The notes below the pieces were generated by a model that saw only the letters and a list, made by a program, of their open reading frames with translations, was not told the origin of the DNA and did not search any database. DNA of 63,932 nt, filler included, from a bacterium (GTDB lineage: Bacteria > UBP15 > UBA6099 > JAJRTR01), in assembly GCA_024278215.1 (NCBI GenBank). It is 4 parts of 4 records of this genome, joined end to end, with 100 filler letters (N's around TTAATTAATTAA, not from the genome) between each part and the next. Parts side by side here need not be neighbours in the genome. Positions count along the whole stretch, not along the records: positions 41,502 to 60,877 come from JAJRTR010000056.1; 3 more parts are not named here. The stretch is one strand, 5' to 3'. The position numbers were made by a program, and so were the translations under genes. Every line of letters starts with the position of its first letter. Within the stretch, counting starts at the first letter, position 1. Shown piece by piece: positions 4,566 to 60,877 of this stretch.

Positions 4566-4886
4566 GTGGTAGACGGGTGGCGCGACCCGAAGACTAAACG
4601 ATGGATAGCGCGTGATTGGAGCGGGTTTGTTCCGACGCCGGACCAAGAAAACAAAGTATCGATTATTGGTCCTGACATTCCGGGGGTTGACGACGAGGAC
4701 CGACTTTTCAGGTGGGGCGACATCCCGCAGATACGGGAGAAAGGGCGGCGAGGGATGCAACTATACGATATGTGGAAGCGGTTCGGCCTCCCGTTCAGCG
4801 GAGGATGGGCAGATCAGCCGCAATATGTTATTGACCGCCTACACATAGTCGATACGATAGTGAGGGCGGCACATGCCAAGAGATAG
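4566..4886 (+). CDS. Tail assembly chaperone T-like portion, probably made as a G-T frameshift fusion
   Basis: In the -1 frame of 4186-4548, with no obvious RBS of its own. LPFSGGWADQP motif. Confidence 0.65.
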   Translation: MVDGWRDPKTKRWIARDWSGFVPTPDQENKVSIIGPDIPGVDDEDRLFRWGDIPQIREKGRRGMQLYDMWKRFGLPFSGGWADQPQYVIDRLHIVDTIVRAAHAKR

Positions 4887-6891: not shown

Positions 6892-9800
6892 ATCGATCCT
6901 GTCAGATCATCAATCGAATCTCATGACCGGCGCCGGGGGAGATCGCGACGAGCGATTGTACCTCGGGCTGCGTGGAGTGAAATACCCCGACATTGCGAGA
7001 GACACGCGGACATATATCGACCGTGGCGACTGCGAATCTACCACTGCTCCGGCGTTGCGTGGGGAAACAGCGGTTACAACGTCGAATCTTACATTCGCAC
7101 GGTCCGACGATTGGAATCATAGAGGCGCGTACTCGTACAAACTGATCAAGGCGGTCGCAGCGGGGACCGAAGCCTACGTCGCGCTGCAGGATGGAGTGGG
7201 CACCGCCGACATGCACGGGTTTATCGCCGGCGAGACGGTGGAGATGATTGCGTGGCTCAAGTTGCCGTCGTCCGGAGGCCCGCTATCGAGCGAGGTTACG
7301 TTGCGCGTGCAGGAATACTATTCAGGCGCGTGGAACGCGACGACGCTGGACACAGGGAGCGTCGATGCCGGGAACATCGAAAAACTCTCCGGTCGGATCG
7401 CACTCAACGCATCCACGGCTGCAGTGCGATTTGAAATCGTACTCGCCTCTGCTGCGGCAGATACTGAGTACGTCTACGTAGACGATATCGAGATTTATCG
7501 ATATGCCACGTTCACTTTGGCGCGCGAGGACAATTTGGTTGACCGGGGGAATTGTGAGTCGACGACGGCTCCGGCGTTCCGTGGAGAAACATCAGCGGTA
7601 TCAACCAATGCATCGGGCGCGCGCACGGCTGAGGTTGCGCGCAGCGGGAACTATGCATGGCGGGTTACTAAGACGTCGGCTGCCGGCGCCGGTTGGGCTA
7701 GCTGGTATTTTCAGGATTCAGCATCTAATACAGACATGCATGGATTTTCAGCCGGTGAGACATTAGAGGTATCTGCATTTGCAAAGCTGACGTCCGGATC
7801 AAGTCCTGATCCGGGAGAAGTGCGGATGCTATTTGAAAATTACAGATTATCTACAAGCTCTTGGGTTGTGATCGGGGCATCAGCCTACATGTCGGTAAGC
7901 GACGCGTTCGAAAAATTGACACTTACTCCGACAATATCAGATGATGCCCGCGGTATCAGATTGCGAGTACAAATTAATACAAATGCAGGCTTAAACGAAT
8001 ATGTAGATATTGATGACATCCGCGTTACCCGCCACAGCGTCCCCGGCACCCACTATCTCAGCGGCAGCTATACCGAGCACCTGGTCGAGATGCCGGATAA
8101 GTTCACGCTGCAGATTAAGTTCAAGCCGAATTTCGCGTATGATATTGCAACCTCGCAATATATTTGCGGATGGAGAATAGATAGTGCGCATAATCTTGTA
8201 TTATATTATGAGGCTTCAGGCGATAAATTCCAAATTCAATGGATAGACGGTGGATCTGCAAAGTATTTGTTTTCCGCTCAATATGATGATGGCACTACAT
8301 ACCGGAATATCAATCAATGGATTACATTAACATTTGCATTTGATCCGGCATCCGGGCAAACAGGTTCCGCATTATGGCTTAACAAAACACAAGACGATGC
8401 GGATTTCGGCGCAGCCCCAGATAGTAAATCAACATCATTCCAGACGATGCGAATGCGTGAATATAACGGAGTACAAGGCGATATTAATATCGCCTTCATC
8501 CGCCTTTTCCGCAACTACGTGGCCACCGACGCCGATGTTCAGAACGATTTCAAGGACGTCAAGGCCGAGGAGATTTACTGGAGTTTCGACGGACATGCGA
8601 CCGGGCGAACACGGGTCAATGTATCGAGATTCTACGCTCGGCGGATGAAACTCACACGCTCGGTTAAAACCGGCACATCAGGCGCCTACGGAGCGAATCG
8701 ATTTCAATGTGCACTCAAAAATCTGAATGGCGAATTCTCCGACGATCAATATGGGACGTATGATCCTACGACCGACAGTTTTAACGGTGACTCCGACCAG
8801 GCGTATTTGCGCGATAGATTCGAGGTCGAGCTTGAATCGTGGTACTCAGGAGATTTCGATTCGGTGTTCCGCGGCCGTGCAGTAGGTGGGTTGCAACGCA
8901 ATAGCGCGAGAAAGAATGTATCGTGGGTATCGCTGGTTGCGGAAGATCGGTCGGCCGATCTGGCGTCGGCAATCATCACATCCGGGCATGTATTCGAGGA
9001 TTGCAAGCTCGCCGACACCGTGGAGGCTAATTCTCTGTTCCACAGAATTGCACGCCTGGGGCGGCCGACCGTCAAACAATATCTGGCGAATAATTCGTTC
9101 GAGGACGCGACGATTACCGATGCCTGGGTGGCGAGCGGGGGAACATGGACGCGCGAAGCGAACCCTTTATTCGGTACATATTGCGGCCGGCTAGTGCCTG
9201 GGGCCTCGGCGCAGAGCGTGTATCAGGAGATAACGTTTTCCGGCTCTGAAAAGCTGTCCGTTAACCAGGAATTCACGTTTTACGTCTGGCTCTATTCCTC
9301 TGCGGCTGCATCGGGCGCGAACAATTATATCCGGATTGATGAGCGCGATAGTGGAGGATCAAACGATACGACAGATACGTCTATGGCATTGACCGGCGGC
9401 GAGGGGTGGGTGCTCCATCAGGTGACGCACACGATTACGGATGCTGATTCAGACAGATTGCGAATCATCATCGCTGCAGATGCCGGAGACACGATTGATA
9501 TAGACGGGGCCATGTTCGTTGTCGGCGACCGTAAAAATAATGTGTTCCGCGAATCATCGTTGGTATTGACTGATGCCGTGTCGAGCGGGTCGGTGAGTGC
9601 CGATTATCGCGACGAGGTGCAATGGGACGAGTTCGGGTTCGACGCGGCGACGATTGACTATGTGCATCCGTGGCGGCGCGTGGATCAAGGCACGACCGTA
9701 TGGGACCATCTCAAATCCCTGTTCGATGCGGCCATAGTGGATTACGGCGGATTCGACGAGTCTGGGACGCTATTATATCACGGGTATTTAGAGTCCGGAC

Positions 9801-21708: not shown

Positions 21709-21808
21709 NNNNNNNNNNNNNNNNNNNNNNNNNNNNNNNNNNNNNNNNNNNNTTAATTAATTAANNNNNNNNNNNNNNNNNNNNNNNNNNNNNNNNNNNN
21801 NNNNNNNN
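21709..21808. other. Artificial contig spacer
   Basis: N44-TTAATTAATTAA-N44, which has stops in all six frames. Confidence 0.97.
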
Positions 21809-22423
21809 AACAACAAATGAACGTTCCCGCCGCCGGCTGTTGTCGTGTATCGCCCAGGCCACAAGTTCTTTGCCCGTGCCGGTTTCGCCGGAGATGAGAA
21901 CAGTGCTGCTGGACAGTGCCAGTCTCTCGATAGCATCGAAAACCCTCTTCATCGGTTCACTTTTCGCGATTATATTAGAAAAATTATATTTTTTCTCCAC
22001 CTCGCGGCGCAACAATCTGTTCTGGAGCATGAGCCGTTGCGCGGAGACAGCTTTTTCAACCGCGCTTTCGATATCCTCAAGTTTAAAAGGTTTTTTCAGA
22101 TAATCCGAAGCGCCGCGCTTGAGAGCATTGATGGCATCGTCCATATCGGCAAACGCCGTTATCATAATCACAGCAGTTTCCTGGCTTGTCTCCTTCACCT
22201 GCTCGAGAATTTCCATCCCGTCCATTCCGCCCGGCATTTTTATATCAGTAATTACTATCTCGAATATATTTTCATTAAAAAGTTTCAGGCCGGTCGGGCC
22301 GTCTTTTGCCGTCTTCACTTCATAGCCGAGCGATGCCAGATGTTCCGACACAAGCATCCGTATGTTCTCTTTATCATCTATGACCAGAATTCTTGTATTC
22401 ATTGGACGCTCCCTGATGTTCAT
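21809..22423 (-). CDS. NtrC-family sigma54-dependent response regulator, 3'-truncated
   Basis: Receiver domain (ILVIDD, TDIKMP, KP) and Walker A GETGTGKE. Confidence 0.9.
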
Positions 22424-22509: not shown

Positions 22510-24360
22510 TCAGGCACCGTCACCGCCTGCGTCGCGAGGAAGTGTGAAAGAAAAACACGCCCCCCTGAGAGAATCCTCGACAACCATTTTTCCGCCATGT
22601 TTTTCGATTATCCTGTAGCATATTGAAAGGCCGAGTCCCGTGCCGACCCCCGGCGGTTTTGTTGTAAAGAACGGATCGAAAATCCGGCGGCGCGTACTCG
22701 CTGGAATCCCCGGTCCCGTGTCCCTGACTTTTATCTTCACATGATCCGCGAGGACCACTCCTTCAACAATGATTCTTCCGCCGTTTTCCATCGCCTGCGC
22801 GGCATTCATCAGCAGGTTGAGAAAGACCTGCATGATCTCTTTGTGGAAGCAGGGAACTTCCGGGAAGTTATCGGGAAAAACCACCTGCAGATTCACTTTC
22901 CGAAAAGCTTTGTGTGCGGAAACCGTTTTATGTGCGGCATAGAGCAGCTTGACGATATCCGCCGGTTCGGGAACCGTGGATTCCTGTTTCGATGGCCTGG
23001 AGAAGTGGAGAAGGTCCTGGATTATTTTCTCGATAAACTCAGCTTCTCTTTCTATCTGCTTTGCAAATTCGCGGTCCTTTTCCTCAAGCGACGGCCTTCT
23101 CTGAAGCATCTGCGCATAGCCTGAAATAGCACTGAGCGGATTGCCTATTTCATGCGCGACACCCGCCGCCAACTCACCCACCGCCGCCAGCCGGCCCGAC
23201 TGTATAAGCTGGTCCTGATTCACCCGCAACCTGCGTGTGGCTTCCTTCAGGTTCCGCTCCCTTTCCTTGAGAGCGTCCGACATCTCGTTGAAAGCGCCGG
23301 CAAGTTCGCCAATTTCATCCTTCTGCTTAATGAATATTTTCACGTCGTAATTGCCGTCGGCAATATTACCGGCGCTTTCCGTCAACCTGCGCATCGGCAT
23401 GAATATTCTTCTGGCCGTATACACGCCGACTCCCAGCGCCATCAGGACAGCGACAACCGCGATTGCGATTGCGAAAAAAATTCCTTCACGCCACATCGCT
23501 TCCATGTCGGCCATATTCCTGCCGATCACTTGAAGGCCCACCGACCGCCCCGCGGCATCTTCGACAAGGCTCGAAACCATAGCGTAGGGTTCGCCGCCCA
23601 GCGACTGGCGGCTAATAGTGTCGTCGGCACCCTTGTGGCCTCCGGCTTCCGTCATTGATATCATGTCGGACAGTTGCCTGACTTCTTCCGGGGACAGACT
23701 GTCGGAAGATATGGAACTCGACAGCACACGTTTGCGCCGCAGGAGAATGTAGTCTGTGCCTGACGTTCCTCTTATCTCGCGTGCGAAATCGTTGTCGAGC
23801 ATATAGCCCGCACTCACATATCCCACTAACCGCCGGTCACTGCCCGGTCCGGTGTACACCCGGGCATAAGAATCCACACACACAACATCCGGCAGGCACA
23901 GCTCGACACCTGTCGATGCAAGGCCGGCAACCGCATTTTTAAAAAGAGGATTCAGGAACACCGGCTCGCCGCTTCTGATCCTGCGGCTTTCCACATCCTG
24001 CGCCGTTTCAAGCCGGCTGATTATTACTCCATCCTTATCTATTACGGAAAGGATGTCGATATTCATGCGGCCCCTGTGTTCTCTCAACACCGAAAGAAGC
24101 GAAAGAGAACCACCGGAGATAATCGATTCGCCGATCTGCGGGTTGGCTGCCAGCAGCCGCGCTATCAGCTCTGCCCGTCCAGCTCGTTCCGACACCGCTT
24201 TCCTGATACCCTCCCTGCCGTAGGCGATCTCCTGTGTTATCTCGTCGTCCAGACTGCTGCGGAAAATAAATGTGTATGCAGCCATGCAGCAGCCGACTGT
24301 CACGGCCACTATCAGTATGACCATGAGGATTATCCTGTTTTCAAGTCTACTGCGTCTCAA
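22510..24360 (-). CDS. Sensor histidine kinase (Cache-like periplasmic domain, HAMP, HisKA, HATPase)
   Basis: Two TM helices; [20 protein letters not shown] and GTGLGL boxes. Confidence 0.92.
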
Positions 24361-48268: not shown

Positions 48269-49648
48269 GTGCGAGTTGAGCCGAAGATGAGAAAAAATGC
48301 GCGATTACTGATAGTGGACGACGATGAGGTGGCACGGAAAAACCTGGCCAGGATATTAAAACGCAAAGGCTGCCGGATTTCTTCCGTAGCTTCCGGTGCT
48401 GAGGCTGTCGCGAAGCTTGGCAGGGAAAGTTTCGACCTGGTCCTGGCCGACCTGATTCTCGAGGAGGGCGTCAGTGGTCTTGATGTACTTGAAGCAGCGA
48501 AAAAGAGATGCCGCGACACGGAGGTTATCATCATTACCGGTTATGCCTCCGTGGAGACTGCTATCGGGGCGATGAAAAAAGGTGCGTATCACTATCTTCA
48601 GAAACCTTTTCGCGCTGAGGAAGTCAGACACCTTGCGGCACAGGCTCTGGAGAAGACAAGGTTGAGAAACCAGGTCAGAGAACTGGAAGAGGAAATACGG
48701 TCCGGCGCTCAAACGCATGACATTATAGGCAAAAGCAGAAAAATTCTTTCGATATTGGATTTGATCGAACAGGTGGCACCCACGGATGCCAATGTGATAA
48801 TTACAGGTGAATCGGGGACAGGCAAGGAACTGGTCGCCTCCGCCATACACAGGCAAAGCAGAAGGGCCGGGAAACACTTTCTGCCGATAAACTGCGCGTC
48901 TTTCACCGACGAGCTGCTGGCGAACGAGCTTTTCGGACATGAAAAGGATGCCTACACGGGGGCGACATCGTCGCGTGCCGGGCTGCTCGAGAGCGCCGAC
49001 GGGGGCACGGTGTTTTTCTACGAAGTGGCTGAAATGCCTGTCCCGATGCAGGCCAAGCTGCTTCGCGTAATCCAGGAACGCGAGTTGATCCGTGTCGGCG
49101 GAAACCGTCACATTCCGATAGATGTGCGAATTATCGCAGCGACGAACAAAGACCTGAAAAAACATGTCGCCCAGGGTTTATTCCGCGAGGACCTTTATTA
49201 TCGCCTCAATGTGATCCACCTCCACATGCCCGCGCTGGCCGAGCACAAGGAAGACATACCGCTCCTTGCCTCCTATCTCCTCGAGCAGATACTAAAACAG
49301 ATGGATAAGCCGGTGAAAGGGTTTTCGGATGAGGCGATGAAAATATTGAAGGGGTACGATTATCCGGGCAATGTGAGAGAACTGGAGAATATTATAGAGA
49401 GGGCTGCCGCGCTGTGCCGCACGGATGTGATAGATACAGATGTTCTGCCGGATGATCTCAAGGGTGTGGCGATATACAGATATGATACGGAAAAGCACGG
49501 CATGAAAAGCATGAAAGAGATCGAAAAAGAGTATATCCGCTGGGTTTTGAACCAGGTCGGCCATAACAAATCCCGTGCCGCCAAAATTCTTGGAATCGAC
49601 AGGGCGTCTTTATACCGGAAGCTGAAAAACTATGAAATAGGCGATTGA
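48269..49648 (+). CDS. NtrC-family sigma54-dependent response regulator
   Basis: Receiver, GESGTGKE, ELFGH..DAYTGA, FREDLYYRL, PGNVREL and a Fis-type HTH. Walker B reads FFYE. Confidence 0.92.
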   Translation: MRVEPKMRKNARLLIVDDDEVARKNLARILKRKGCRISSVASGAEAVAKLGRESFDLVLADLILEEGVSGLDVLEAAKKRCRDTEVIIITGYASVETAIGAMKKGAYHYLQKPFRAEEVRHLAAQALEKTRLRNQVRELEEEIRSGAQTHDIIGKSRKILSILDLIEQVAPTDANVIITGESGTGKELVASAIHRQSRRAGKHFLPINCASFTDELLANELFGHEKDAYTGATSSRAGLLESADGGTVFFYEVAEMPVPMQAKLLRVIQERELIRVGGNRHIPIDVRIIAATNKDLKKHVAQGLFREDLYYRLNVIHLHMPALAEHKEDIPLLASYLLEQILKQMDKPVKGFSDEAMKILKGYDYPGNVRELENIIERAAALCRTDVIDTDVLPDDLKGVAIYRYDTEKHGMKSMKEIEKEYIRWVLNQVGHNKSRAAKILGIDRASLYRKLKNYEIGD

Positions 49649-49709
49649 GCCGATTGCAAAATTCCGATTCTGCCGTGGTCGGCTGCAAACATAATTCTGC
49701 GATCGGCTC
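49647..49709. mobile_element. MITE family A, 63-bp internally deleted copy
   Basis: GAGCCGATTGCAAAATT..AATTCTGCGATCGGCTC with 4-bp TSD GATT. Confidence 0.75.
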
Positions 49710-49716
49710 GATTAAG

Positions 49717-49732
49717 TGTTGTATTTTGCAAC
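49717..49732. promoter_or_regulatory. Putative upstream activating sequence
   Basis: TGTTGTATTTTGCAAC, about 170 bp upstream of the sigma54 promoter. Confidence 0.55.
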
Positions 49733-49900
49733 GATGAATCTCTGAAGGAGTTCGTCTGAAAAACCGGGAAAAAATCTCCTGAAAAAAAACTTGAAACTTT
49801 TTTTAGACGAAACCACATTATCCCCTATTGGCAATAACAGCATTATCATATCATCTACCCCAGCCGTTGGCAGGCAATATGCAAAGCCAATTATGACAGT

Positions 49901-49916
49901 TGGCACGGGTTTTGCT
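49901..49916 (+). promoter_or_regulatory. Sigma54 -24/-12 promoter
   Basis: TGGCAC-GGGTT-TTGCT matches TGGCAC-N5-TTGCW exactly, upstream of the USP operon. Confidence 0.8.
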
Positions 49917-49942
49917 TAGAGAAAGCGAGGCGGTGAATTGAG

Positions 49943-50425
49943 TTGGCATCGGAACGTTGCATACTTACACTTTTTGATAATCCCGACATCAGGCCGGAGG
50001 CGGTCAGGTATGCATGTGGGCTGGCAAAACGTGTAAACGCGAGCATCATTATGTTTCTGGTGCTGATTTTCAGCGAGCAGAGCGGGCAGAAGCCCGACGA
50101 CATCCGGGTGCAGGAATTGAGAACGCTGGGTGAGGGGTTGTTGAGTCCGTTTCTTGAGGCGGCAAAGAGAGAGGGCATTGAGGTGCGCGGGGAAGTCAGG
50201 GTGGGGGAACCGGCATCTGAAATGCTGAAGTTCCTTGCCGAAGATCATGTGCTTCATTCGGTGGTGTGGGGCGGAGACAACAGTGTTCTGGACACAAAGA
50301 GGTTAAGGCATGAAGATCACTGGCTGGACCGGATAAAGGATAAATTCGGGTGTCCGCTCGTGTCGCCGAAAGGACCGGATGCGCAGGAGCGAAAAGAAGG
50401 TATTTCCATAGAGCCGATTGCATAA
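49943..50425 (+). CDS. Universal stress protein-like protein
   Basis: AVRYACGLAKR, GIEV..VRVGEP..E and VVWG USP pattern. Confidence 0.7.
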   Translation: MASERCILTLFDNPDIRPEAVRYACGLAKRVNASIIMFLVLIFSEQSGQKPDDIRVQELRTLGEGLLSPFLEAAKREGIEVRGEVRVGEPASEMLKFLAEDHVLHSVVWGGDNSVLDTKRLRHEDHWLDRIKDKFGCPLVSPKGPDAQERKEGISIEPIA

Positions 50426-50448
50426 TTCTGATTCGGGCGGCGGTCGGC
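50411..50448. mobile_element. MITE family A single-end remnant
   Basis: GAGCCGATTGCATAATTCTGATTC..CGGTCGGC matches the end of the 32681 copy. Confidence 0.55.
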
Positions 50449-50494
50449 ACCACAGAAAAACAGTAAAGAAACCTGCGGTGAAAGGGATAGAGAG

Positions 50495-52039
50495 ATGCAG
50501 ATTATATGTATAGGCAGAGGTAGTTATTCGAAAGGGAAAGAACTTGCGGAGACACTGGCGGAAAATATCGGCTGCCAGTGCGTGAGCAGGGAAGACATGA
50601 TCGAGGAGGCGATAAAAAGCGGGGTAGCCGTGGGCAAACTCGAGACGGCGATACTCAAGCCGCACATCTTCAACGAGCGCCTGGCGATAGAGAAAGAGCT
50701 TTTTCAGGCGTTCAGCACGAAATATCTGCTCGAGCGTGCGGCGACGAACGGCGGATTGGTTTATCATGGCCGCGCCGGTCATCTTCTGCTGCCCGGCATC
50801 AGCCACGTGCTTCGAGTCCGCGTGGTAGCCGACAAGGAGTTCAGGATCAATGACGTAATGAACCGGCTGAATCTGAACCGCGCAAAAGCCAAATCGTATA
50901 TCGAAAGTGTCGATGAAGATATCAGGCGATGGGTGAGGATGTATTACGGGGTGGAATGGGAAGAGGCCTCTCAGTATGATGTGATTCTCAACCTCGAGCA
51001 GATGCACGCCTGGAATGCGGCGACCGCATTATGTGCACTTGCGGAATTGCCCGAGTTCCAGATAACACCGGCGTCGAGGAAAGCTATAGCGGACCAGCTT
51101 CTTGCGGCGAGGGCGCGTCTGGCGCTGGCCGAGGATGAATCGACCTATAACGCCCGGCTCGCTGTCCGGGCCGACAACGGCACAGTGTCCGTGGTGTACC
51201 AGTTGCAGCAGGCGGAGGCGGCGGACAAGATACCGGAAGTTCTCAAAAAGCTCGACGGGGTGAAAGATGTCGTATGCACGATGGCGCAATCCAACATCTT
51301 ATGGATTCAGGAGAAGTATGACCCGGAATCGGAATCGTTCAAGAATATATTCAGCCTGGCTCAGAAATGGGACTCCGCGGTCGAGCTGTTGCGCCTCGTG
51401 CCGAGCGAGGGAAACGAGCAGGACGAGACAATACAGGTGACGGGCGCTCCGGATGCGGCTGAACTTAAAAGTGGAACCGGCGGCGGGCGAAAAAAAGGCG
51501 CGTATAACGGCGGAATCGAGGACGATGATGATGAGCAGGTCGAGCGGGAGGACGACGGCGGACTGAACAGGACACTGACCGAGCTTGCCAGGCTGGGCCG
51601 GTCCGGTGGCGGGCGTTCGGTGCGAACGACTCCTCGCAGGCTGGTAAAAGCGATAGATCATTCTGTGGAATATAATCTGCTTGTCGTCGGCGATGTATTT
51701 CTCTCCAAGGGGCACGCGGCCCAGGTGCGTATGGCCCAGGAGATGTGCGGGCTTCTCAATGAAAAGATAAAAGTGCCGGTGGTGATGGCGGACGAACTCA
51801 AGCAGCAATTCTTCTTCGGCACAAGACAACTGCTCAACATGCTCGCATATCTTACCATCACCGCAGTGATTTATTTTACCGTATTCACTCATCAGGCACA
51901 GATTCTGGAATTCCTGCATGACGACAACCCCACGGCTAAAATTCTTTCCGCCGGCGCGGTATTCGTCTTTGTGCCTGTTGTTGCTTATGTCTACGGCACA
52001 GCGAGCAGTCTGTTTCTGAAACTCCTGCGGATCGAATAG
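50495..52039 (+). CDS. Cytidylate-kinase-like domain protein with BON-like, USP-like and C-terminal 2-TM regions
   Basis: IICIGRGSYSKG.ELAE, VYHGRAG and YDVILN, then C-terminal hydrophobic helices. Confidence 0.75.
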   Translation: MQIICIGRGSYSKGKELAETLAENIGCQCVSREDMIEEAIKSGVAVGKLETAILKPHIFNERLAIEKELFQAFSTKYLLERAATNGGLVYHGRAGHLLLPGISHVLRVRVVADKEFRINDVMNRLNLNRAKAKSYIESVDEDIRRWVRMYYGVEWEEASQYDVILNLEQMHAWNAATALCALAELPEFQITPASRKAIADQLLAARARLALAEDESTYNARLAVRADNGTVSVVYQLQQAEAADKIPEVLKKLDGVKDVVCTMAQSNILWIQEKYDPESESFKNIFSLAQKWDSAVELLRLVPSEGNEQDETIQVTGAPDAAELKSGTGGGRKKGAYNGGIEDDDDEQVEREDDGGLNRTLTELARLGRSGGGRSVRTTPRRLVKAIDHSVEYNLLVVGDVFLSKGHAAQVRMAQEMCGLLNEKIKVPVVMADELKQQFFFGTRQLLNMLAYLTITAVIYFTVFTHQAQILEFLHDDNPTAKILSAGAVFVFVPVVAYVYGTASSLFLKLLRIE

Positions 52040-52131
52040 TATAATTGAACCTTTGCGTTTTCATAGAAACAACCGATTTTTCCGGGGACACGGTCCGGAG
52101 TTAAAGAACAAGTATACGGAGGAACAGGATA

Positions 52132-53268
52132 ATGTTGGGAGAGTTAGGCGGATTGTTTATTTCACTGCATTTCTCAAATGCCGCTCAAGTAGTAGTACTG
52201 GGCTTTGTCGGAGGAGTGCTGAGCGGATTCATCGGTAGTGGGGGCGCGTTTTTTATGACTCCCGGCATGATGAACCTGGGCGTGCCCGGAATCGTGGCCG
52301 TGGGCAGCAACATCACGCACAAGTTCGGCAAAGCGATGATGGGCTCTAAGAAGCACGGGGAAATGGGGCACGTGGACAAGAAATTAGGTGGTTATCTCCT
52401 GGTGACGTCATTCGTCGGCATCAGGATCGCTGTCTGGATCAACAGCATGTTGTTCAAGGGCGGCGGCGGCAGCCACGGGGTAGGCGGGGGCGCGGCGTCC
52501 GATCTCTATATCAGCCTTGTGTTTGTCACCATTTTGTTTTTTGTCGCCGTGTCGATGCTCAAGGACGCTTTTTCATCCGGCGGTTCCGATGATTCCGAGG
52601 GTGGGCCCTCCACCAAGCTGGTCGAGTTCTTTTCAAGGCTTTATCTTCCGCCGATGATCAATTTCCCGGTGGCGGACGTAAAGATTTCGCTGTGGATACT
52701 CATGATTGTCGGGCTTGCCACAGGCTACCTTGCGGGCACCATCGGAGTCGGCGGATTCATCGGTGTTCCCGCCATGATCTATGTCTTCGGGCTCCCCACG
52801 CAGGTCGCCGCCGGCACCGAACTGTATCTCGCCATGTTTATGGGCGGTTTCGGCGCTCTCAATTACGCATACGAGGGTTATGTGGATATCCGTCTGACTA
52901 TGCTGATGTATCTCGGCTCACTTATCGGTATTTATTTCGGCGCATACGGCACAAAAGTTGTCAAAGAGGTAATCATTCGTATCGTTACCGGAATGATCAT
53001 TATTCTATGTGTTTTCAGCCGCGGTATCGCCATACCCATGTATATGCGCCAGTTGGGTTGGCTGAATATCAACCCCGGCTATGATATTTACTTCAACCAG
53101 GCCAGCAAGGCGCTGCTGTTCATCAGTGGAATCACGGGCACGCTCGTTATTTTATTTTACGTCGTCAAGGCCTACCGCCAGCGAAACCGCACCTATGCCA
53201 CACTCAAGGCAACCAGCACTATGAAACAGCGGATGGAAGCTGCCGGTGTGAAGGCCGCGGGCAGTTGA
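52132..53268 (+). CDS. TauE/SafE (TSUP) family sulfite/sulfur-compound exporter
   Basis: Two GF.GG..SGFIG.GG / G.LAG.IGVGG repeats, AVGS and AAGT; multi-TM. Confidence 0.88.
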   Translation: MLGELGGLFISLHFSNAAQVVVLGFVGGVLSGFIGSGGAFFMTPGMMNLGVPGIVAVGSNITHKFGKAMMGSKKHGEMGHVDKKLGGYLLVTSFVGIRIAVWINSMLFKGGGGSHGVGGGAASDLYISLVFVTILFFVAVSMLKDAFSSGGSDDSEGGPSTKLVEFFSRLYLPPMINFPVADVKISLWILMIVGLATGYLAGTIGVGGFIGVPAMIYVFGLPTQVAAGTELYLAMFMGGFGALNYAYEGYVDIRLTMLMYLGSLIGIYFGAYGTKVVKEVIIRIVTGMIIILCVFSRGIAIPMYMRQLGWLNINPGYDIYFNQASKALLFISGITGTLVILFYVVKAYRQRNRTYATLKATSTMKQRMEAAGVKAAGS

Positions 53269-53474
53269 AAGCACCGGCTTTCACCATAAATGTTTTTCGC
53301 AACAACTGCCGAAAAACGCAGTGTTTGATACAATATCAACGGAACCTGCGCTTCAGAATGATACAGCGGCGCTTCGACAGGGGCCATCTCATTTATTTAC
53401 GCTCGTAAGCGACAACAACCTGTCGCCTTCAGCGCGACAGAGCCCCGCGACGAAACCTGGAGAAAGAGCAATCT

Positions 53475-55844
53475 ATGAACTGGTGGCGGAAACTATCAGG
53501 CACGCAGCCTAAACTTGATCCGAATACGATTTTGAGGCTGAAATGCGCCAGGTTTCATCATGTGCAGGAGAACTATAAGAAGTTCAACAACCTGATAAAT
53601 GACGCGATTGAAAAACTGGGCGGCGAGTATGTCATCGACAAACAGTATCTCTCGTCTCTCCTCGAGAACGCTTTCAGCCTTGCCGGCGAAATCGTGCACG
53701 ACATGAACATGATGTCCGGTTATCAATACAGTGACCTTTTTTTCAAACTTGACAGGATGAAATCGAATCTCAGGCGTATTCTCGCGTGGCAGCCACAGAT
53801 AAAATCCGGCGACCTGGTTATCTCGCTTTCCGACATTGATGAACTTGACCACTACCACCAGGTCGGCGGTATTTTCACCCGCCTTGCCGAAATAAAACAG
53901 CGATTGGGTCTGCTCGTGCCGGAGGGTTTCGTTATTTCATTCTCCGCTTTTTCCATGTTTGTTGATTACAACGGGCTCGAACCGCTCATGAACCTTGCAG
54001 ATGCGCGGCCTACAAAGGTTATGGAGGAGTTGCGCGGCAAAATGCGCGTTGCAACCCTCCCGCCCGATCTCGCGGGCGACATCGAGACGGCTGTGCGCCG
54101 GCTGTGCGAAATATACGAACCACCACACAGATTCATTCTCAGGGGCGCCGCGCTGGGTGAGGAATATAATAAACATTCGGCAGGCAACCTCTGTGCCGTG
54201 GAAGCGGTCGGTCCCGGCGATGTCCTGAATGCTTACAAAGCGGTGTTGGCCGCTATGTATGGCGGACAGGCGGTTGAGAACCGCATCAAGCTGGGACTCG
54301 ATCCCAAATGTGATGTGGCGGTAGCCGTATCCAGAATGATAAACGCCGAGATCGAAGGCAGCATCTACACCGTCAGTCCCGACACCCCCCATAACGGAAA
54401 TATCCGCATAGAAACATTATCGAACGGCGCGCCCGACGCGGCATACGAGGCATCCCGCAGACCTCCCTACAACGTCGAAACATATCCGGAAGAAGAAACA
54501 TCTAAAACCCGACTCGCACGGCGCGACATCTCAGGCCTCGCGGAAAAGGCGATGCGGATTGAGCGTTATTTCAAAGGCCCGCAGGAGATCGTATGGGTGC
54601 AGGATAAGAAAAAAGACACCTACATTATACAATCAAAACCTCTCATACTGGATGTGGAGCACAGCATTCCGCCGGGAGAGCTGGCCGAGGCAGTCGCACG
54701 CCACGAGTCGCTGTATGACCAGGCGGGCAAAGTCGCCTGCCCCGGCATAGCGTGCGGCAGCGTCCACCTGATCTCCGGAAGGCAGGACCTCGAAAACCTG
54801 CCGGAGAACGGCGTGATTGTGATCGAGAAGTTCGAGCCAGTAATGGACCTTATGCTCGTATTGTCGCGGGCAGCGGCAATACTCGCCGACACCGGCGCGC
54901 CTACCGGACATGCCGCATCGCTCGCCCGCGAATTCCATGTCCCGACCATTGTGGGACTGGGCGATGCCTCACGGCGCCTCAAGCCCGGCGACACTGTAAC
55001 CGTGGACGCCGATGATAATGTCGTCTATATGGGCGAAGTCAGCGAACTGCTCCACTACCAGCTCCAGGAATACTTAAATCTTGAAAATGAGAAAGAATAT
55101 AATCTATTGCGGTTCATGCTGCACCGCATATCCTCCGGCGGAGTTGTAGGCGCCGGATCGAGCAGGACAAAACTCAGGGACCGCGAAACTCTCGACAACA
55201 TCATCCGTTTCTGCATGGACGTAACCAGTCGCGAAATGACACATGCGATCGAGTCGATAAGGGCGGGATTACTCAAATCAGCTCCACACATTGAAAGCGG
55301 CCCGGGGCTGAAACTTCACCTGATCGACCTCGGAGACGGCATCGAACCCGCGGGAGCATCAGGGAATAAAATCATTGAAATGGATGCGGTCAGGTCGCCG
55401 CTGTTTCGTGCCCTGTGGGAAGGACTGTCCGGCGCGGAAGCGGCGAATCGCAATCCTGCCGCTTTCGGACTTGCCGCGATCTCGGCGGAACGTCTCCATC
55501 TGAACCTGGCGACAGGCGCGCGCACTTATATTCTGGATGCGTACCAGTGCGGCGACGACGAATACAATTACATCTACGTGCACATTTCCGACCGTTTGTA
55601 CGCAGAAGACAGGAGCGAGCGCCGGATTCTGTGGCTGAAGGGGATCCTTGAGAAATTCGATTTTCGCACTTTTCGCAGCGATGATGGAATTACCGTATGG
55701 AGATATGTCATGCCGGCAACAGAAACCGCGCGGCTATTGACTATAATAGGCAGGATGCTGGGCTACGCCGAGAATCAGGATATGCAAGTACATGCCGGTA
55801 TGCCTGTCGAAAAAGAAATAGAAGTATTCCTGAAACAACAATAA
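53475..55844 (+). CDS. PEP-synthase/PPDK-like protein A: intact phospho-His swivel domain, degenerate nucleotide-binding domain
   Basis: TGHAASLAREF is intact; GGI, RGAA, QEIVW and QSKP replace GGK, RSS, QDIEW and QxRP. Confidence 0.8.
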   Translation: MNWWRKLSGTQPKLDPNTILRLKCARFHHVQENYKKFNNLINDAIEKLGGEYVIDKQYLSSLLENAFSLAGEIVHDMNMMSGYQYSDLFFKLDRMKSNLRRILAWQPQIKSGDLVISLSDIDELDHYHQVGGIFTRLAEIKQRLGLLVPEGFVISFSAFSMFVDYNGLEPLMNLADARPTKVMEELRGKMRVATLPPDLAGDIETAVRRLCEIYEPPHRFILRGAALGEEYNKHSAGNLCAVEAVGPGDVLNAYKAVLAAMYGGQAVENRIKLGLDPKCDVAVAVSRMINAEIEGSIYTVSPDTPHNGNIRIETLSNGAPDAAYEASRRPPYNVETYPEEETSKTRLARRDISGLAEKAMRIERYFKGPQEIVWVQDKKKDTYIIQSKPLILDVEHSIPPGELAEAVARHESLYDQAGKVACPGIACGSVHLISGRQDLENLPENGVIVIEKFEPVMDLMLVLSRAAAILADTGAPTGHAASLAREFHVPTIVGLGDASRRLKPGDTVTVDADDNVVYMGEVSELLHYQLQEYLNLENEKEYNLLRFMLHRISSGGVVGAGSSRTKLRDRETLDNIIRFCMDVTSREMTHAIESIRAGLLKSAPHIESGPGLKLHLIDLGDGIEPAGASGNKIIEMDAVRSPLFRALWEGLSGAEAANRNPAAFGLAAISAERLHLNLATGARTYILDAYQCGDDEYNYIYVHISDRLYAEDRSERRILWLKGILEKFDFRTFRSDDGITVWRYVMPATETARLLTIIGRMLGYAENQDMQVHAGMPVEKEIEVFLKQQ

Positions 55845-55848
55845 GGAG

Positions 55849-56241
55849 ATGTCTTTTATGAGTAATAAATTGCGAACTCTGATATTGGATGACGAATCAA
55901 TAGTTTGTAAGCGTCTCAAACCGGCCCTCGAAAAAAGCGGCTACGAGGTTGAAACTTTTGATAATCCGACCGATGCCCTCAAAAGGATCGACCAGGAAGA
56001 GTTCGATATAGTAGTCACGGACATCAGGATGGATGAGATCGACGGGATACAGGTGCTCGAACATGTTCTCGCAAGATCGAGCCGGACCAGGGTCATTATT
56101 ATCACCGGTTACGCAACGGTCGAAATGGCGCGTGAAGCGCTCGCCAAAGGCGCTTTCGACTTTATTGCCAAACCCTTCAAACCCAACGATCTGCGCGCGG
56201 TCATCGCAAAAGCCGCCAAGGAACTCAAAAGCGAAAAATAA
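55849..56241 (+). CDS. Stand-alone response regulator receiver
   Basis: LILDDE, TDIRMD, TGY and KP motifs. Confidence 0.92.
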   Translation: MSFMSNKLRTLILDDESIVCKRLKPALEKSGYEVETFDNPTDALKRIDQEEFDIVVTDIRMDEIDGIQVLEHVLARSSRTRVIIITGYATVEMAREALAKGAFDFIAKPFKPNDLRAVIAKAAKELKSEK

Positions 56242-56371
56242 TTGGGTCAGGCCGGGATAATTGCATAATTGAGCCCGGTTGTTTTTGCGCTTTTCCCAAT
56301 GTTCCCAACGGGAATGGTGGGAACGTTGCAATACACATGCAGGATAAATAAGATACAAAGAACACACCCGG

Positions 56372-58258
56372 TTGTTGTCATTGAGGAGAATCTGGATGTC
56401 GATTTTTTACCGAAGGATGGTTCATACCGATTTCTACAATGCCGATGCGATGCGGCGCAGAAGCGAGGTGAAAAGAAGCATTCTGAACATGAGCGGACTT
56501 CTGCGCCGGGACATCGAGAATCTGGAATCCGAAATCCGCTATTTCCCTCCGTACAGTTCCCGTATGCGGCAATATATTCTGCAAATTCTCGAAAGAACGC
56601 TGCTCCTTACTGAAAACCTCAATTTTTTAACCGGAGATAAGTATCAGTTCCTATATGCGGCGCATCAGCAGGTGGAAAACGCTGTACGCGCATATTTTAA
56701 GTCTCTCGAATCCCGAGAAGGCTCTGTCCTGGTCGTTTCACCGGCTGAAGCGGACACTGTCGATGAAAAACTTATCGGCGACAAGTCCGCAAAACTTTTC
56801 AACCTGAAAAAAAACTTCCCCGGGAACGTGTCTCCCGGTTTTGTTGTTACCACTGCGGCCTATCGACTGTTTATTGATGAAAACGAATTGGAAGAGAAAA
56901 TTCATACGCTACTTAAAGACCTGGATGTAATCGCCAATCGGGACCTGTTCCACATCCGTACCCGCGCCATCAGGAAGTTGATGGAAGAAGCCGCTGTCCC
57001 TGAACGCATAACGGCGGAGATACGCGAGTGGAGCGAGAAAACCGCCGGTCGGGACAGCCGATGGGCCGTGCGCTCGAGCGGCATCGGCGAAGGCGGGCGA
57101 GCGACCTTTGCCGGGCAGTTCGACAGCTTCCTCAATGTCGCGGGCGACAGCCTGCCCGACGCATACCGGAAAGTCATCGCGAGCCGTTTCACTGATCGGG
57201 CTGTTTATTATCGTCTGGCCGGCGGCTTCAGTGAAACCGATACGCCTATGGCGGTTTTGTTTATGCCCATGATCGACGCCCGTTCCGCTGGAGTGCTCTA
57301 CACGAGTGACCCCGGCGACAGTTCGTCGGATCGCATGATTCTGAACTCCGTGTGGGGGCTCGCCGCGGACCTGTTAAGCGGGCGTGCCGACCCCGATACA
57401 TTTATTGTCAGCCGTTCGGCACCGGGGCGGATAATTAAAAGCTATGTAGCCGAAAAGCAAACCGCCGTGGTACCCGGCGCCGATGGGCTGACCGGCAAAG
57501 AGCAACTCGCAACGGCCAGGAGCGGCGCGCCGTCGTTGTCGGAAAACGAGATATCCGATCTGGCGCAACTCGGCCTTGCGATAGAAAAACACCTTGGCGC
57601 TCCGCAGGATATCGAGTGGGTAGTGGATCGACAAAACAAGTACTGGATTGTGCAGTCGCGGTGCCTTCTGCTGCCGCGGCGGCGCGACCGGAGTGGCGGC
57701 AGACCGGAACAAGCCGAGTTGCTGACAGAGGGCGGCGATACGATCTTCCCCGGCTGGACGACCGGCCCCGTGTTCACTCCCGGCAGCGATGCCGCTTTGA
57801 TCGAGACGCCGTCGGGCGCGATACTGGTTGTGAAGAAACTTCATTCGGGAATTGTCGAGGTTCTGCCTTACCTCGCCGGCTTGATCGCCGAACAAAGCGA
57901 TCATACGGGACGCATAGCTTCGCGTGTGCAGGAATATGGGCTTCCATGCCTGTTCGGGGTGGACAATGCAACGGAAAAACTCCCGCCCGGTACGCATATC
58001 GTACTGGATGCCGCGCACCGCTCTGTCTTCGCCGCCTCAGCGCCCGAAACGGATGACGCCCCTGACGCCAGAGGCGACAATGACGGTTTTTCCAGTGTGC
58101 CCGGCACACTTTCCGAGCTGATATTCAAGTCGAAACATACCGATCCGGTCGACCTCTCAAGCGAATCCGCACAGGGCGTCTCTCTTTATGATATTGTTAG
58201 GTTCGTTCATGGAAAAGCAGCGAAATTCAATCCTGTTTCAGGACGGGATCAGGGCTGA
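56372..58258 (+). CDS. PEP-synthase/PPDK-like protein B: largely intact nucleotide-binding domain, phospho-His replaced by Arg
   Basis: GDK, AVRSS, FAGQFDSF, QDIEW and QSR retained; swivel motif reads TGRIAS. Alternative start ATG56396 after GAGGAG. Confidence 0.8.
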   Translation: MLSLRRIWMSIFYRRMVHTDFYNADAMRRRSEVKRSILNMSGLLRRDIENLESEIRYFPPYSSRMRQYILQILERTLLLTENLNFLTGDKYQFLYAAHQQVENAVRAYFKSLESREGSVLVVSPAEADTVDEKLIGDKSAKLFNLKKNFPGNVSPGFVVTTAAYRLFIDENELEEKIHTLLKDLDVIANRDLFHIRTRAIRKLMEEAAVPERITAEIREWSEKTAGRDSRWAVRSSGIGEGGRATFAGQFDSFLNVAGDSLPDAYRKVIASRFTDRAVYYRLAGGFSETDTPMAVLFMPMIDARSAGVLYTSDPGDSSSDRMILNSVWGLAADLLSGRADPDTFIVSRSAPGRIIKSYVAEKQTAVVPGADGLTGKEQLATARSGAPSLSENEISDLAQLGLAIEKHLGAPQDIEWVVDRQNKYWIVQSRCLLLPRRRDRSGGRPEQAELLTEGGDTIFPGWTTGPVFTPGSDAALIETPSGAILVVKKLHSGIVEVLPYLAGLIAEQSDHTGRIASRVQEYGLPCLFGVDNATEKLPPGTHIVLDAAHRSVFAASAPETDDAPDARGDNDGFSSVPGTLSELIFKSKHTDPVDLSSESAQGVSLYDIVRFVHGKAAKFNPVSGRDQG

Positions 58259-58347
58259 ACCATATCCGCGACAAGGCTGCCTGCCCTACACTTCTATCGT
58301 TTTTACGCTGACCATAACCCGCGCCAATACATGGAGATCCGACGATT

Positions 58348-59961
58348 ATGAAGACCAACAGACAAAACGATGGCAACGACGACGCAATATTGAAGGATTC
58401 ACCGTATTTCCTTTCAGAGAACACAGACGTGAAGACCGCCCTGTTGAAAGACGATTCCGAAACGAAAATACTCAGGGCGCTCCTCGAGCGGCCCGGATTC
58501 AGTATCCGCGCTCGTCTGGCGCTGGGATTCCTGTTGTTTTTCGCCTTGAGCGTGGGCATCACCATCACCGCGTACATCGCCCTCAATCACATGGAGCGCA
58601 AATTGATTTTCCTGGAAGTTGCCGATCTATTCACAAATGAGATACAACAGGCCCGCCGGTACGAGAAAAATTTCTTTCTGTACGGTTCCGACATTTCCAA
58701 TGTCCTGGAGCATATAGACATCGCCGATCAGCTTCTGGACTCCGCCAGAAGCGAGCTGGTCTCGGTAGTCGGCGAAAAAAACATGCGAACGATGGAGAGC
58801 CATCTTAGTAAATACAAGAAACTCGTCATTAAAATAAATACACTCAGCATTGATCAGGAATCCTCCGAACTACCCGAATACAAGGAAATAGCCGAAGAGC
58901 TTCGCTCGCACGGCACGGAGATGCTATCGTTCGCAATCGACATGTCACGCAAAGAGCGCGACAAAGTCAATGACATGATACGTGTCGCCAAAATGGCTCC
59001 CGTCGTCTTTTCGATTATCATTTTTCTGCTTATGCTCTACGAGACCAATTTCCTTGCCCGGCACATTATCCGCCGCCTCAACCGACTCATGGAAGCCACC
59101 CAGCGTGTGGCGAACGGCGATTTCACCCCCATCATGCCACATCGCCGCTTCCGCGACGAGTTCACCAACCTCGCGGTGGCCATGAACAGCATGATGAGCC
59201 AGCTCATGCACCGCCATGAAATCCTGGTGCGCTCACATAAACTCCGCGCGGTGGGCACACTCACCGCAGGCGTAGCCCACGAACTGAACAACCCGATAAA
59301 CAATATCATGCTCACCTCGGAAATGCTGAAGGAGGATTACAGCGAACTCTCCGACGAAGAACGACTCGACATGGTGTCCGACCTGGTGAGCCAGGCGGAA
59401 AGAGCGCGGAAAATCGTCAGCAACCTCCTCGATTTCGCCCGGGAAAGCGAGATCGAACCGGAATTGCTCGATGTCGGACAGATTATTCGTGAAACTCTCG
59501 CGCTGGTCGGCAACCAGTTGAAGCTCCACAACGTGAAGCCGCAACTGGACATTGCACACAACCTGTCTCCCGTTCACGGTGACAAACAGCACCTCAGCCA
59601 GGTTTTCTTCAACCTGATTATGAACGCGATCGACGCAATGCCCGAGGGCGGGAAACTCATAATAAACGTATCGAACTCATCCTTCGAGGCCTCCTTTCTG
59701 GAAGTAAGAATAAGTGATACGGGGAAAGGTATCCCCGAGCATTTGATAGGCTCCATATTCGACCCGTTCTTCACCACCAAACCTACCGGCAAGGGAACCG
59801 GGCTGGGACTTTCCGTTTCCATGGGTATCATCAGAAAACACGGGGGCGCCATCCGGGTGGAAAGCAAAGTCGGCGAAGGGACGTCCTTTTCAATCCTGCT
59901 GCCCATCTCCACGGTGCCGGCCGAGATCATGCACGAAAAATCTCAGAAAAACGGGGAATGA
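58348..59961 (+). CDS. Sensor histidine kinase (HAMP, HisKA, HATPase)
   Basis: Two TM helices; AHELNNP, NLIMNA, DTGKGI and GTGLGL boxes. Confidence 0.92.
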   Translation: MKTNRQNDGNDDAILKDSPYFLSENTDVKTALLKDDSETKILRALLERPGFSIRARLALGFLLFFALSVGITITAYIALNHMERKLIFLEVADLFTNEIQQARRYEKNFFLYGSDISNVLEHIDIADQLLDSARSELVSVVGEKNMRTMESHLSKYKKLVIKINTLSIDQESSELPEYKEIAEELRSHGTEMLSFAIDMSRKERDKVNDMIRVAKMAPVVFSIIIFLLMLYETNFLARHIIRRLNRLMEATQRVANGDFTPIMPHRRFRDEFTNLAVAMNSMMSQLMHRHEILVRSHKLRAVGTLTAGVAHELNNPINNIMLTSEMLKEDYSELSDEERLDMVSDLVSQAERARKIVSNLLDFARESEIEPELLDVGQIIRETLALVGNQLKLHNVKPQLDIAHNLSPVHGDKQHLSQVFFNLIMNAIDAMPEGGKLIINVSNSSFEASFLEVRISDTGKGIPEHLIGSIFDPFFTTKPTGKGTGLGLSVSMGIIRKHGGAIRVESKVGEGTSFSILLPISTVPAEIMHEKSQKNGE

Positions 59962-60265
59962 GAAACAATTCACAGCTGCATTTACAAGAAAAACCTTGTG
60001 TGTTTCTGAAAAACGATATTATTCGCTTCGCACGGATTGATTCCTGTTCCGAGGACAATATCTACAAGCAAAAATAGTTGCCGTCCCGATCGAAGCGAAT
60101 AATTCCCACAGAGTTCAGTCTGTGGCGAAAGATGTTTCCGTCGATGGGCACTTCGTAACATTATATGTAAAGCTGGTATTTTTTCTTGTTTGGTCCTATT
60201 CTATTCGGCGGGTATGTGAATACATGATAATATTGTTGAAAGGTAAATAACAGGTTGCAACATTT

Positions 60266-60877
60266 ATGAAAGACAGCATTTTATCTGCGATTAACAAGGT
60301 GTCCTCGAACTATGTGAGAAAATGGATCGGATTGAGTATCCTTATAGGAATAGCAGCCGGACTGGGTGCAATACTTTTTTTCTGGGCTATCAGAGAAGTC
60401 TCCGATCTCCTGATGGTAGCCGGTGCGGGCTATAAGCCACCTGCGCCGGCAGGGGAAGGTCCGACCATACTGACGGCAATAGCCCGGCCATGGCTGTTCC
60501 CGATCATCACGGGCCTGGGCGGTCTGGCAAGCGGACTCATAGTATATTCGTTTGCGCCGGAGGCTGAAGGACACGGCACGGATTCCGCTATAGATTCTTT
60601 TCACAATAAGGGTGGTTTCATCAGGCGGCGCGTTCCGATTGTCAAGGTTATTGCTTCCGCGATAACAATAGGTTCAGGCGGTAGCGCCGGGCGTGAGGGT
60701 CCGACAGCCCAGATAGCCGCGGGCGTGGGGTCCGCACTCGCAGACCTTTTCAGACTTAAGCCGCATGACCGGCGGTTGGCTATGGCGGTGGGGATCGGCG
60801 CGGGGATCGGCGCGATATTCAAAGCGCCTCTCGGCGGTGCCATACTCAGTATGGAGATTCTCTACCGTCGCGATTTC
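60266..60877 (+). CDS. ClC-family chloride channel/transporter, 3'-truncated
   Basis: [14 protein letters not shown] and FKAPLGG motifs. Confidence 0.9.

Follow-up and report, generated by a model that had tools for sequence, protein, structure and literature searches.

In this work we examine a 63,932-nucleotide stretch of bacterial DNA (the window; GenBank assembly GCA_024278215.1, GTDB lineage Bacteria; UBP15; UBA6099; JAJRTR01) and, within it, four co-directional genes on the plus strand at positions 53475–59961, which encode a dikinase-like protein (A), a stand-alone receiver, a second dikinase-like protein (B) and a sensor histidine kinase. A and B appear to have lost complementary parts of one enzyme: A its ATP site, and B its phospho-acceptor histidine together with the whole C-terminal domain, such that a live ATP-grasp (in B) and a live swivel histidine (in A) are found on separate neighboring polypeptides with one gene between them. 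As read from their sequences, A and B are probably functional only together, each lacking a different essential part, which leads us to propose, tentatively, that the pair is a variant of the two-protein dikinases that was reached by reciprocal degeneration inside a signaling operon. That B loads His479 of A in trans is, by analogy with such dikinases, the best single explanation of our observations, and one to which we give a little less than even weight.

Protein A (53475–55844, 789 residues), as delimited by Pfam, alignments and an AlphaFold model, comprises a helical N-terminal extension (residues 1–120), an ATP-grasp domain (121–395), a swivel domain (436–520) and a C-terminal domain (556–789), with Pfam matches to PPDK_N in two stretches (3.2e-26) and to PEP-utilizers (9.3e-16). 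Catalytic residues were checked in HMMER alignments to the solved phosphoenolpyruvate synthase (PpsA) chains 8a8e, 9dae and 2ols and to rifampicin phosphotransferase (RPH, 5hv2), as well as in a 111-row MAFFT alignment. A preliminary description of this DNA had reported altered grasp residues in A beside an intact TGH motif, and both comparisons bear it out: GGK is replaced by GGI133, RSS by R223-G-A, AGQ by AGN238, DIEW by E371-IVW and QxR by QSK388. With I133, RGA, EIVW and QSK, A lacks a catalytically competent PPDK_N grasp, and it has the swivel His479, whose codon at 54909–54911 (its reported position being arithmetically right) aligns with the catalytic histidine of all three PpsA chains. 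Since the K22A substitution in RPH is reported to abolish all activity (PMC4844700), the GGI loop predicts that the ATP site of A is dead. In the AlphaFold model (predicted local distance difference test score, pLDDT, 83.2; predicted template modeling score, pTM, 0.76), the N-terminal extension forms three long helices and the grasp is still predicted to fold as an ATP-grasp despite its lost catalytic residues; Foldseek places PpsA 2ols (5e-17), RPH and PPDK at the top of its matches, with HpeI (9goj, E 1e-12) at rank 8.

Protein B (56396–58258, 620 residues; Pfam and alignments) presents the opposite picture. It most likely starts at the ATG at 56396, and not at the TTG at 56372 where the 628-residue open reading frame begins, since a GAGGAG lies 8 nt upstream of the ATG and the orthologues begin MSxFY. 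In the numbering of the open reading frame, its N-terminal extension is followed by an intact ATP-grasp (126–440), a swivel domain without the histidine (479–555) and a short tail, there being no C-terminal domain (Pfam PPDK_N 9.7e-71, PEP-utilizers 1.3e-9). The alignments to PpsA and RPH and the 111-row alignment show K138, R234-SS, AGQ, D413-IEW and Q428-SR in place, that is, a competent grasp, and Arg514 (codon 57911–57913) where the catalytic histidine of the swivel should be; the orthologues have Leu, Leu and Gly in this column. Both the intact grasp and the arginine with its codon had been noted before, and alignment and arithmetic agree with them. The preliminary description had also stated that B stops early. 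The protein is indeed short and lacks the C-terminal domain after its first helix; its truncation is a conserved feature, however, and not a break, because the end point and a tail of the form F[DN]x[VI]SG[KR] are common to B, P0058, P0060 and the remnant in the related locus L001. We take this truncation to be old and shaped by selection, given what B has in common with these relatives. A frameshifted pseudogene is ruled out by the same four-protein agreement and by the mere 90 nt that separate B from the histidine kinase gene. Another candidate, the histidine three residues upstream in B (SDH) as an alternative acceptor, is ruled out as well, the orthologues having P, P and A there. A search for shorter relatives of B yielded, for the most part, fragments and proteins with a grasp alone, and nothing resembling the L001 remnant.

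A and B share 24% identity across 514 residues and, on sequence evidence, are old paralogues within a large unnamed dikinase-like family. Its members measure about 820–890 residues (typically about 850) and consist of a helical N-terminal extension (about 110), a PpsA-type ATP-grasp, a swivel histidine domain and, at the C-terminus, a novel domain of about 290 residues. The wider family (alignment rows P0011–P0047 and P0059–P0109) keeps K, RSS, xxEW, QxR and the histidine wherever these columns are present, and the residue pattern of A and B is therefore more than chance. That neither protein has a pyruvate-binding barrel, as had been claimed, agrees with the lack of any Pfam match to PF02896 (PEP-utilizers_C) in A or B and with NCBIfam PpsA scores (TIGR01418/NF005057) of 159 bits for A and 233 bits for B, far under the cutoff of 598.

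Within this family A and B occupy conserved slots. A motif scan retrieved 20 loci from GTDB and 17 from metagenomes, in which the genes are closely packed: at 19 loci in addition to the window they run A-slot, receiver, B-slot, and at six labeled Acidobacteria or Acidobacteriota the A-slot gene lies directly 5' of the B-slot gene. The histidine kinase usually follows downstream, with TauE and a cytidylate-kinase-like gene upstream and often also a Usp gene and a sigma54 activator; the signaling operon that holds the pair is thus conserved in several phyla, and the sampled metagenome-assembled genomes in which the family occurs are labeled Acidobacteriota, Myxococcota (Anaeromyxobacteraceae), Latescibacterota, Armatimonadota, Nitrospirota and Pseudomonadota. 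In a 74-row tree rooted on PpsA, the A-slot proteins form one clade (support 99) with the complete enzymes L002, L003 and P0011 at its base. The remaining 17 A-slot rows (support 100) are grasp-dead and divide into two subclades. Subclade 1 (support 100; window A, P0005–P0010 and L001) retains a degenerate grasp, all of its members having lost the catalytic residues while keeping the domain; in subclade 2 the grasp is mostly deleted and the histidine always lost. Across grasp-dead A-slot rows outside subclade 1 the histidine is kept in 0 of 25, with A, I, G, P, S, T, D or Y tolerated at the site. The B-slot proteins likewise form one clade (support 100), all complete except for a single subclade (support 98) made up of window B, P0058, P0060 and the L001 remnant. 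With the incomplete B-type proteins in one subclade and the A proteins of subclade 1 in one clade, the complementary states appear to have arisen once and persisted.

The states of the two slots are coupled. Of 21 pairs whose two genes both lie complete on the contig, several of them near-duplicate loci and hence not 21 independent events, both copies are live in one (L003), a dead A (no histidine; grasp deleted or degenerate) stands beside a complete B in 16, the reciprocal state (A histidine kept, B grasp kept) is found in three (the window, L021 and L023, the latter two being one lineage) and both are dead in one (L001, from the closest genome). In no pair is a live grasp or a live histidine left as an orphan. 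The second reciprocal lineage, L021–L023 (P0005/P0058), has the gene order of the window. The preliminary expectation that the complementary pattern recurs in orthologous clusters therefore holds for one metagenome lineage, with the same order, and not as a rule: in its usual form, the module pairs an A-slot pseudoenzyme that is dead with a B-slot enzyme that is complete. In L001, A has no histidine, the grasp of B is deleted and B is reduced to 322 residues, so that in this third lineage the loss of the A histidine coincides with that of the B grasp. The same genome carries a second cluster (L038; G001, contig C245) with a TauE-like gene, a complete 862-residue enzyme, two receivers and a cytidylate-kinase-like gene.

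The residues that would be needed for a division of labor have been retained over considerable divergence. All three B-type proteins (window, P0058, P0060) keep K, RSS, AG(Q/L), DIEW and QSR without a histidine in cis, and 11 catalytic grasp residues are fixed among them over about 1.9 (1.92) substitutions per site, an outcome with a rough probability of 7e-10 at the mean rate. On the side of A, the histidine is kept in five of seven orthologues over 3.1–3.9 substitutions per site, with a rough probability of 0.02–0.04 at the mean rate. The A proteins of subclade 1 also have a motif of their own, D-E-L-[DE]-H-Y-H (A residues 122–128, 53838–53858, plus strand), which lies just 5' of the dead GG(I/L/V) loop, is invariant in 7/7 members, is absent from the complete enzymes and from subclade 2, and may represent a new site.

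From these patterns we infer that A and B bind each other and that phosphate passes between them. In the mechanism we propose, which follows that of PpsAB, CreHI and HpeHI, B would bind ATP and His479 of A would attack the beta-phosphate in trans, with the dead domains being retained for assembly. The phosphate would most plausibly serve signaling, either by transfer to Asp58 of the receiver or as a phospho-state of A, and not the original substrate of the family, because the second, ancestral site of the family, in the C-terminal domain, is eroded in A; for the same reason, transfer to a small molecule is unlikely.

Such loading in trans has precedent. Separate grasp and swivel proteins, with the histidine loaded in trans, are established for PpsAB, CreHI and HpeHI (PMC12167813), and an account of Pps/Pas alpha and beta likewise places the grasp and swivel functions on separate proteins acting in trans (PMC7500099). 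The window pair resembles these two-protein dikinases, including phenylphosphoamidate synthase, in having its grasp and swivel-histidine functions on separate polypeptides, and HpeI (9goj) matches B in sequence (6.4e-36) as well as the model of A in fold. The known systems, however, are cleanly split into a grasp-only protein of about 340–390 residues and a protein with the swivel and a substrate domain resembling the rifampicin-binding domain, whereas A and B each keep a dead copy of the partner's domain as well as a helical N-terminal extension, and A has no rifampicin-binding-like domain (hhalign 0.1%) and an eroded acceptor site. The surroundings differ too: PpsAB, CreHI and HpeHI are encoded among aromatic catabolism genes, A and B among two-component signaling genes. 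With PpsA and PPDK the pair shares a homologous ATP-grasp and swivel in the same order and with the same motifs (hhalign 100%, columns 112–590), but A and B are without the TIM barrel, possess the N-terminal helical domain, and neither has all catalytic parts. RPH, in which Lys22 and Arg117 are reported from mutagenesis to be essential for transfer (PMC4844700), also combines an ATP-grasp with a swivel histidine; it does so in a single chain in the order grasp, rifampicin-binding domain, swivel, and A and B have no rifampicin-binding domain. A further relative is VadK (Rv1127c), described as a truncated PPDK with ATP and histidine domains only that acts as a regulatory, autophosphorylating histidine kinase on its own His422 in cis (PMC13400623). 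It shares with A and B a kinship to the dikinases and the absence of the second substrate domain; in contrast to them, it unites the ATP site and the histidine in one chain.

Several observations weigh against loading of A by B. The reciprocal state is known from two independent lineages only. Two of the seven A orthologues have no histidine, namely P0009, with its L001 relative, and P0010, which has Ile in the histidine column. In the C-terminal domain, 42 columns reach a conservation of at least 90% among 22 complete enzymes, and A matches only 16 of them; with this domain eroded in A and missing from B, the pair cannot rebuild the ancestral three-site enzyme. HpeH and HpeI are reported to form no stable complex (PMC12167813), which leaves the retention of dead domains for assembly without precedent there. 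In L001, moreover, the operon is conserved although both genes of the pair are dead (receiver 75%, histidine kinase 66%, TauE 74%, cytidylate-kinase-like protein 54%), and the operon can therefore do without dikinase chemistry. A complete paralogue elsewhere in the genome, such as that in the L001 genome, could also be the real partner of A or B. Finally, conservation within A does not single out a working carrier: in subclade 2 and subclade 1, respectively, it amounts to 52% and 52% for the swivel, 60% and 60% for the linker helix and 32% and 30% for the C-terminal domain. A-slot proteins without the histidine are thus as well conserved as those with it, a conserved A-slot role needs no histidine, and we rejected conservation of the histidine domain of A as evidence of an active carrier.

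These last values lead directly to the main rival, which we regard as rather unlikely, namely that A is a non-catalytic A-slot subunit, a scaffold or docking partner of the receiver, whose histidine is unused, and that B is an ATP-binding or ATP-hydrolyzing regulatory module read by the receiver or the histidine kinase, with no phosphate passing from B to A. Such a role would fit the 16 of 21 complete pairs that keep an A-slot protein with neither a live grasp nor the histidine, the identical domain conservation profile with and without the histidine, and the relaxation of the C-terminal domain in all dead A-slot proteins (30–32%, their worst part, vs. 65% in complete B-slot proteins, their best part). 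It leaves unexplained, however, why B-type proteins, having no nucleophile of their own, keep all 11 catalytic grasp residues unchanged, why the histidine of A persists only in the subclade whose partner has lost its own, and why the B grasp and the A histidine are lost jointly in L001.

Cross-talk is a further, improbable alternative, in which His479 of A is loaded by a complete family member encoded elsewhere, or the grasp of B serves one, and the complementarity of the neighbors is incidental. There are three to six family members per genome (22 matches in five genomes), and the second TauE/enzyme/two-receiver/cytidylate-kinase-like cluster of the L001 genome supplies a complete paralogue of the kind required. 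Still, the 64-kb window contains no further paralogue, and the coupling of neighbors, none of the 21 pairs having an orphan state, speaks for the neighbor as the partner. That both genes are relics on the way to loss, with complementarity a mere snapshot, is most improbable: L001 with both copies dead and a B of 322 residues might illustrate the end state, and the C-terminal domain of the A subclade is only 30% conserved, but both frames in the window are intact with full-length orthologues at 41–48% identity, the catalytic residues and tail of B are conserved, the swivel and linker helix of A are 52–60% conserved, and A is modeled confidently (pLDDT 83).

If B does load A in trans, the phosphate could continue into the two-component system of the operon, whose canonical features are present: the histidine kinase carries HisKA and HATPase_c, and the receiver has its acidic pocket, phospho-Asp, Thr and Lys. 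Read from the sequence, D14, D15, D58, T86 and K108 are intact, and these residues are conserved in the 17 receivers shown from a 33-sequence alignment, across all pair states; receiver identity across loci is 52–85%. Natural fusions in which a receiver follows the C-terminal domain were found in three of 148 new representatives (P0235, P0244 and P0260) and in the genome-encoded L053 (1–2799), and the fused receivers match that of the module with E values between 1e-45 and 1e-52. The full catalytic set (K, RSS, AGQ, DxEW, QAR and His) is present in P0235 and L053, and P0244 and P0260 are N-terminally cut fragments with the catalytic residues kept in the parts present; P0235, P0244 and P0260 have their closest relatives in L004/L005, which is sister to the A-slot clade. 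A second receiver gene lies downstream of L053. Among 22 family genes in five genomes, the next gene encodes a receiver in five cases and a histidine kinase in four, and a TauE or cytidylate-kinase-like gene is adjacent in six more. By these fusions and neighbors the family is tied to receivers, as far as gene content tells, with the genes giving no direction, be it control of the enzyme or receipt of its phosphate.

In multi-step phosphorelays and hybrid histidine kinases, a sensor kinase and a receiver are linked through an Hpt or DHp helix that is loaded by HATPase_c. The operon resembles them in its sensor kinase, its single-domain receiver and its output response regulator, and some family members end in a receiver as hybrid kinases do; it differs in that the proposed histidine carrier is a PEP-utilizer swivel loaded by an ATP-grasp. 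We know of no transfer from a PEP-utilizer swivel domain to a receiver. With natural enzyme–receiver fusions in the family, such a transfer may occur. A more far-reaching idea, which we consider quite unlikely, is that the whole family (at least 1591 clusters) is an ATP-grasp/swivel-histidine alternative to histidine kinases in feeding receivers, of which the window pair would be a split version running from B through His479 of A to Asp58 of the receiver. If so, the operon would gain a second, HATPase_c-independent input into its phosphorelay.

Loading in trans would also mean that a two-protein dikinase had emerged by reciprocal decay of full-length paralogues and not by gene fission, a natural case of complementary degeneration locking two copies of an enzyme together. 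Irrespective of the chemistry of the pair, the analysis exposes a large unnamed enzyme family that, in the genomes sampled, resides in two-component operons and is sometimes fused to receivers, and whose C-terminal domain has no Pfam entry and no convincing relative among solved structures. Its live, half-dead and dead pairs constitute ready-made natural mutants for study.

The C-terminal domain has no Pfam family in any of 33 members and no sequence relative in the PDB at E<=10, and at E<=1e-3 its profile retrieves at least 1591 representative proteins from 1.84 billion. A degenerate TIM barrel is ruled out by an hhalign probability of 0.3% against a PpsA alignment, and a rifampicin-binding domain by one of 0.1% against an RPH-like alignment. 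Its model (pLDDT 77.7, pTM 0.73) has no convincing solved match in Foldseek, where the best template modeling (TM) score against the PDB is at most 0.27 when normalized to query length; Foldseek rows to histidine-kinase cores (probability at most 0.28, TM at most 0.2) are not to be trusted. The wide VIA comparison peaks at Z 7.6, with none at Z 8, through ferredoxin- or ACT-like sub-domain matches at model residues of about 160–250. The N-terminal extension returned only chance-level rows against PDB sequences (E >= 0.18). Complete members conserve C-x3-H-D-x5-H on one helix, YH, FRFxGG, RRxxR and RQLD (A residues 570–581, 682–683, 702–717 and 766–769), motifs that could make up a metal or phosphotransfer site. 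Of these A has lost the greater part: C570, H574, D575, H581, Y682, H683, G706 and G707 (the glycines of FRFxGG), and R714 and R766 out of three conserved arginines, with R717 kept. Full-text searching of the literature found no paper on the family or the module. One lead to a possible member of the family is the 'PEP synthase' DITHS69_1988 of Dissulfuribacter thermophilus; encoded beside a transmembrane protein and TauE (1989, 1990), it is reported to rise in proteomics under thiosulfate disproportionation (PMC13490349).

The remainder of the operon, all on the plus strand, agrees with the preliminary order of A, receiver, B and histidine kinase downstream of a sigma54-dependent Usp/TauE operon, as open reading frames and Pfam matches concur. 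An NtrC-type sigma54 activator (48269–49648; receiver, AAA+ and HTH_8 by Pfam) has an orthologue at the equivalent position in L001, L006, L021 and L024–25. An exact-consensus sigma54 -24/-12 promoter, TGGCACGGGTTTTGC (49901–49915), lies 28 nt 5' of the Usp-like gene and is the sole zero-mismatch match across the window. Similar elements precede the Usp gene in three of five loci checked (L001, 1844–1858; L006, 3544–3558; L021, 4696–4710), and the same pattern found none before it in L024 and L025. The Usp-like protein (49943–50425) matches Pfam Usp at 3e-4, under the curated cutoff, and its gene is syntenic in L001, L006 and L021–25. Then follows a 514-residue cytidylate-kinase-like protein (50495–52039; Cytidylate_kin2, 1.7e-32), syntenic in related loci, with an unusual N-terminus rich in glycine (GRGSYSKGKE) and, at its C-terminal end, two hydrophobic helices, from which it is probably membrane-anchored; a form of 270–280 residues is found with other family clusters. 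The TauE/SafE-family membrane protein (52132–53268; Pfam 1.1e-34) is 70–75% identical in L001, L006 and L021.

The receiver gene (55849–56241, 130 residues, CheY-like; Response_reg, 4.6e-31), whose orthologues start at Met4 (55858), is followed directly by a terminator-like hairpin and T-rich run (56250–56294), predicted by RNA folding, with a z-score of only -1.1 for the whole gap and the hairpin missed in a separate scan. The gap between the receiver and B (56242–56395) measures 155 nt in the window vs. at most about 32 nt in related loci, and a sigma54-like TGGTGGGAACGTTGCA lies within it at 56315–56330. Given the hairpin and T-rich run and this sigma54-like element in so long a gap, B and the histidine kinase may have a promoter of their own, the fold z-score of -1.1 notwithstanding. 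The membrane sensor histidine kinase (58348–59961, 537 residues; HAMP-HisKA-HATPase_c by Pfam) is 54–66% identical in L001, L006, L013, L015 and L021. None of 11 open reading frames in other frames or on the opposite strand has a Pfam family, Rfam has zero matches in 49500–60400, and PADLOC returned nothing for A, B, the histidine kinase, the cytidylate-kinase-like protein, TauE or Usp and only generic matches for the receiver.

Elsewhere in the window, a second receiver/sigma54-activator gene on the minus strand (21761–22423, 220 residues) ends about 55 residues into its AAA+ domain and adjoins a HAMP-HisKA-HATPase_c kinase gene (22510–24360, minus strand). A region near the beginning of the window looks like that of a phage tail, with the gene of a tape-measure protein (PF20155, 1.3e-26) and, after it, a 1712-residue open reading frame that has no Pfam family (together 4873–12019, plus strand).

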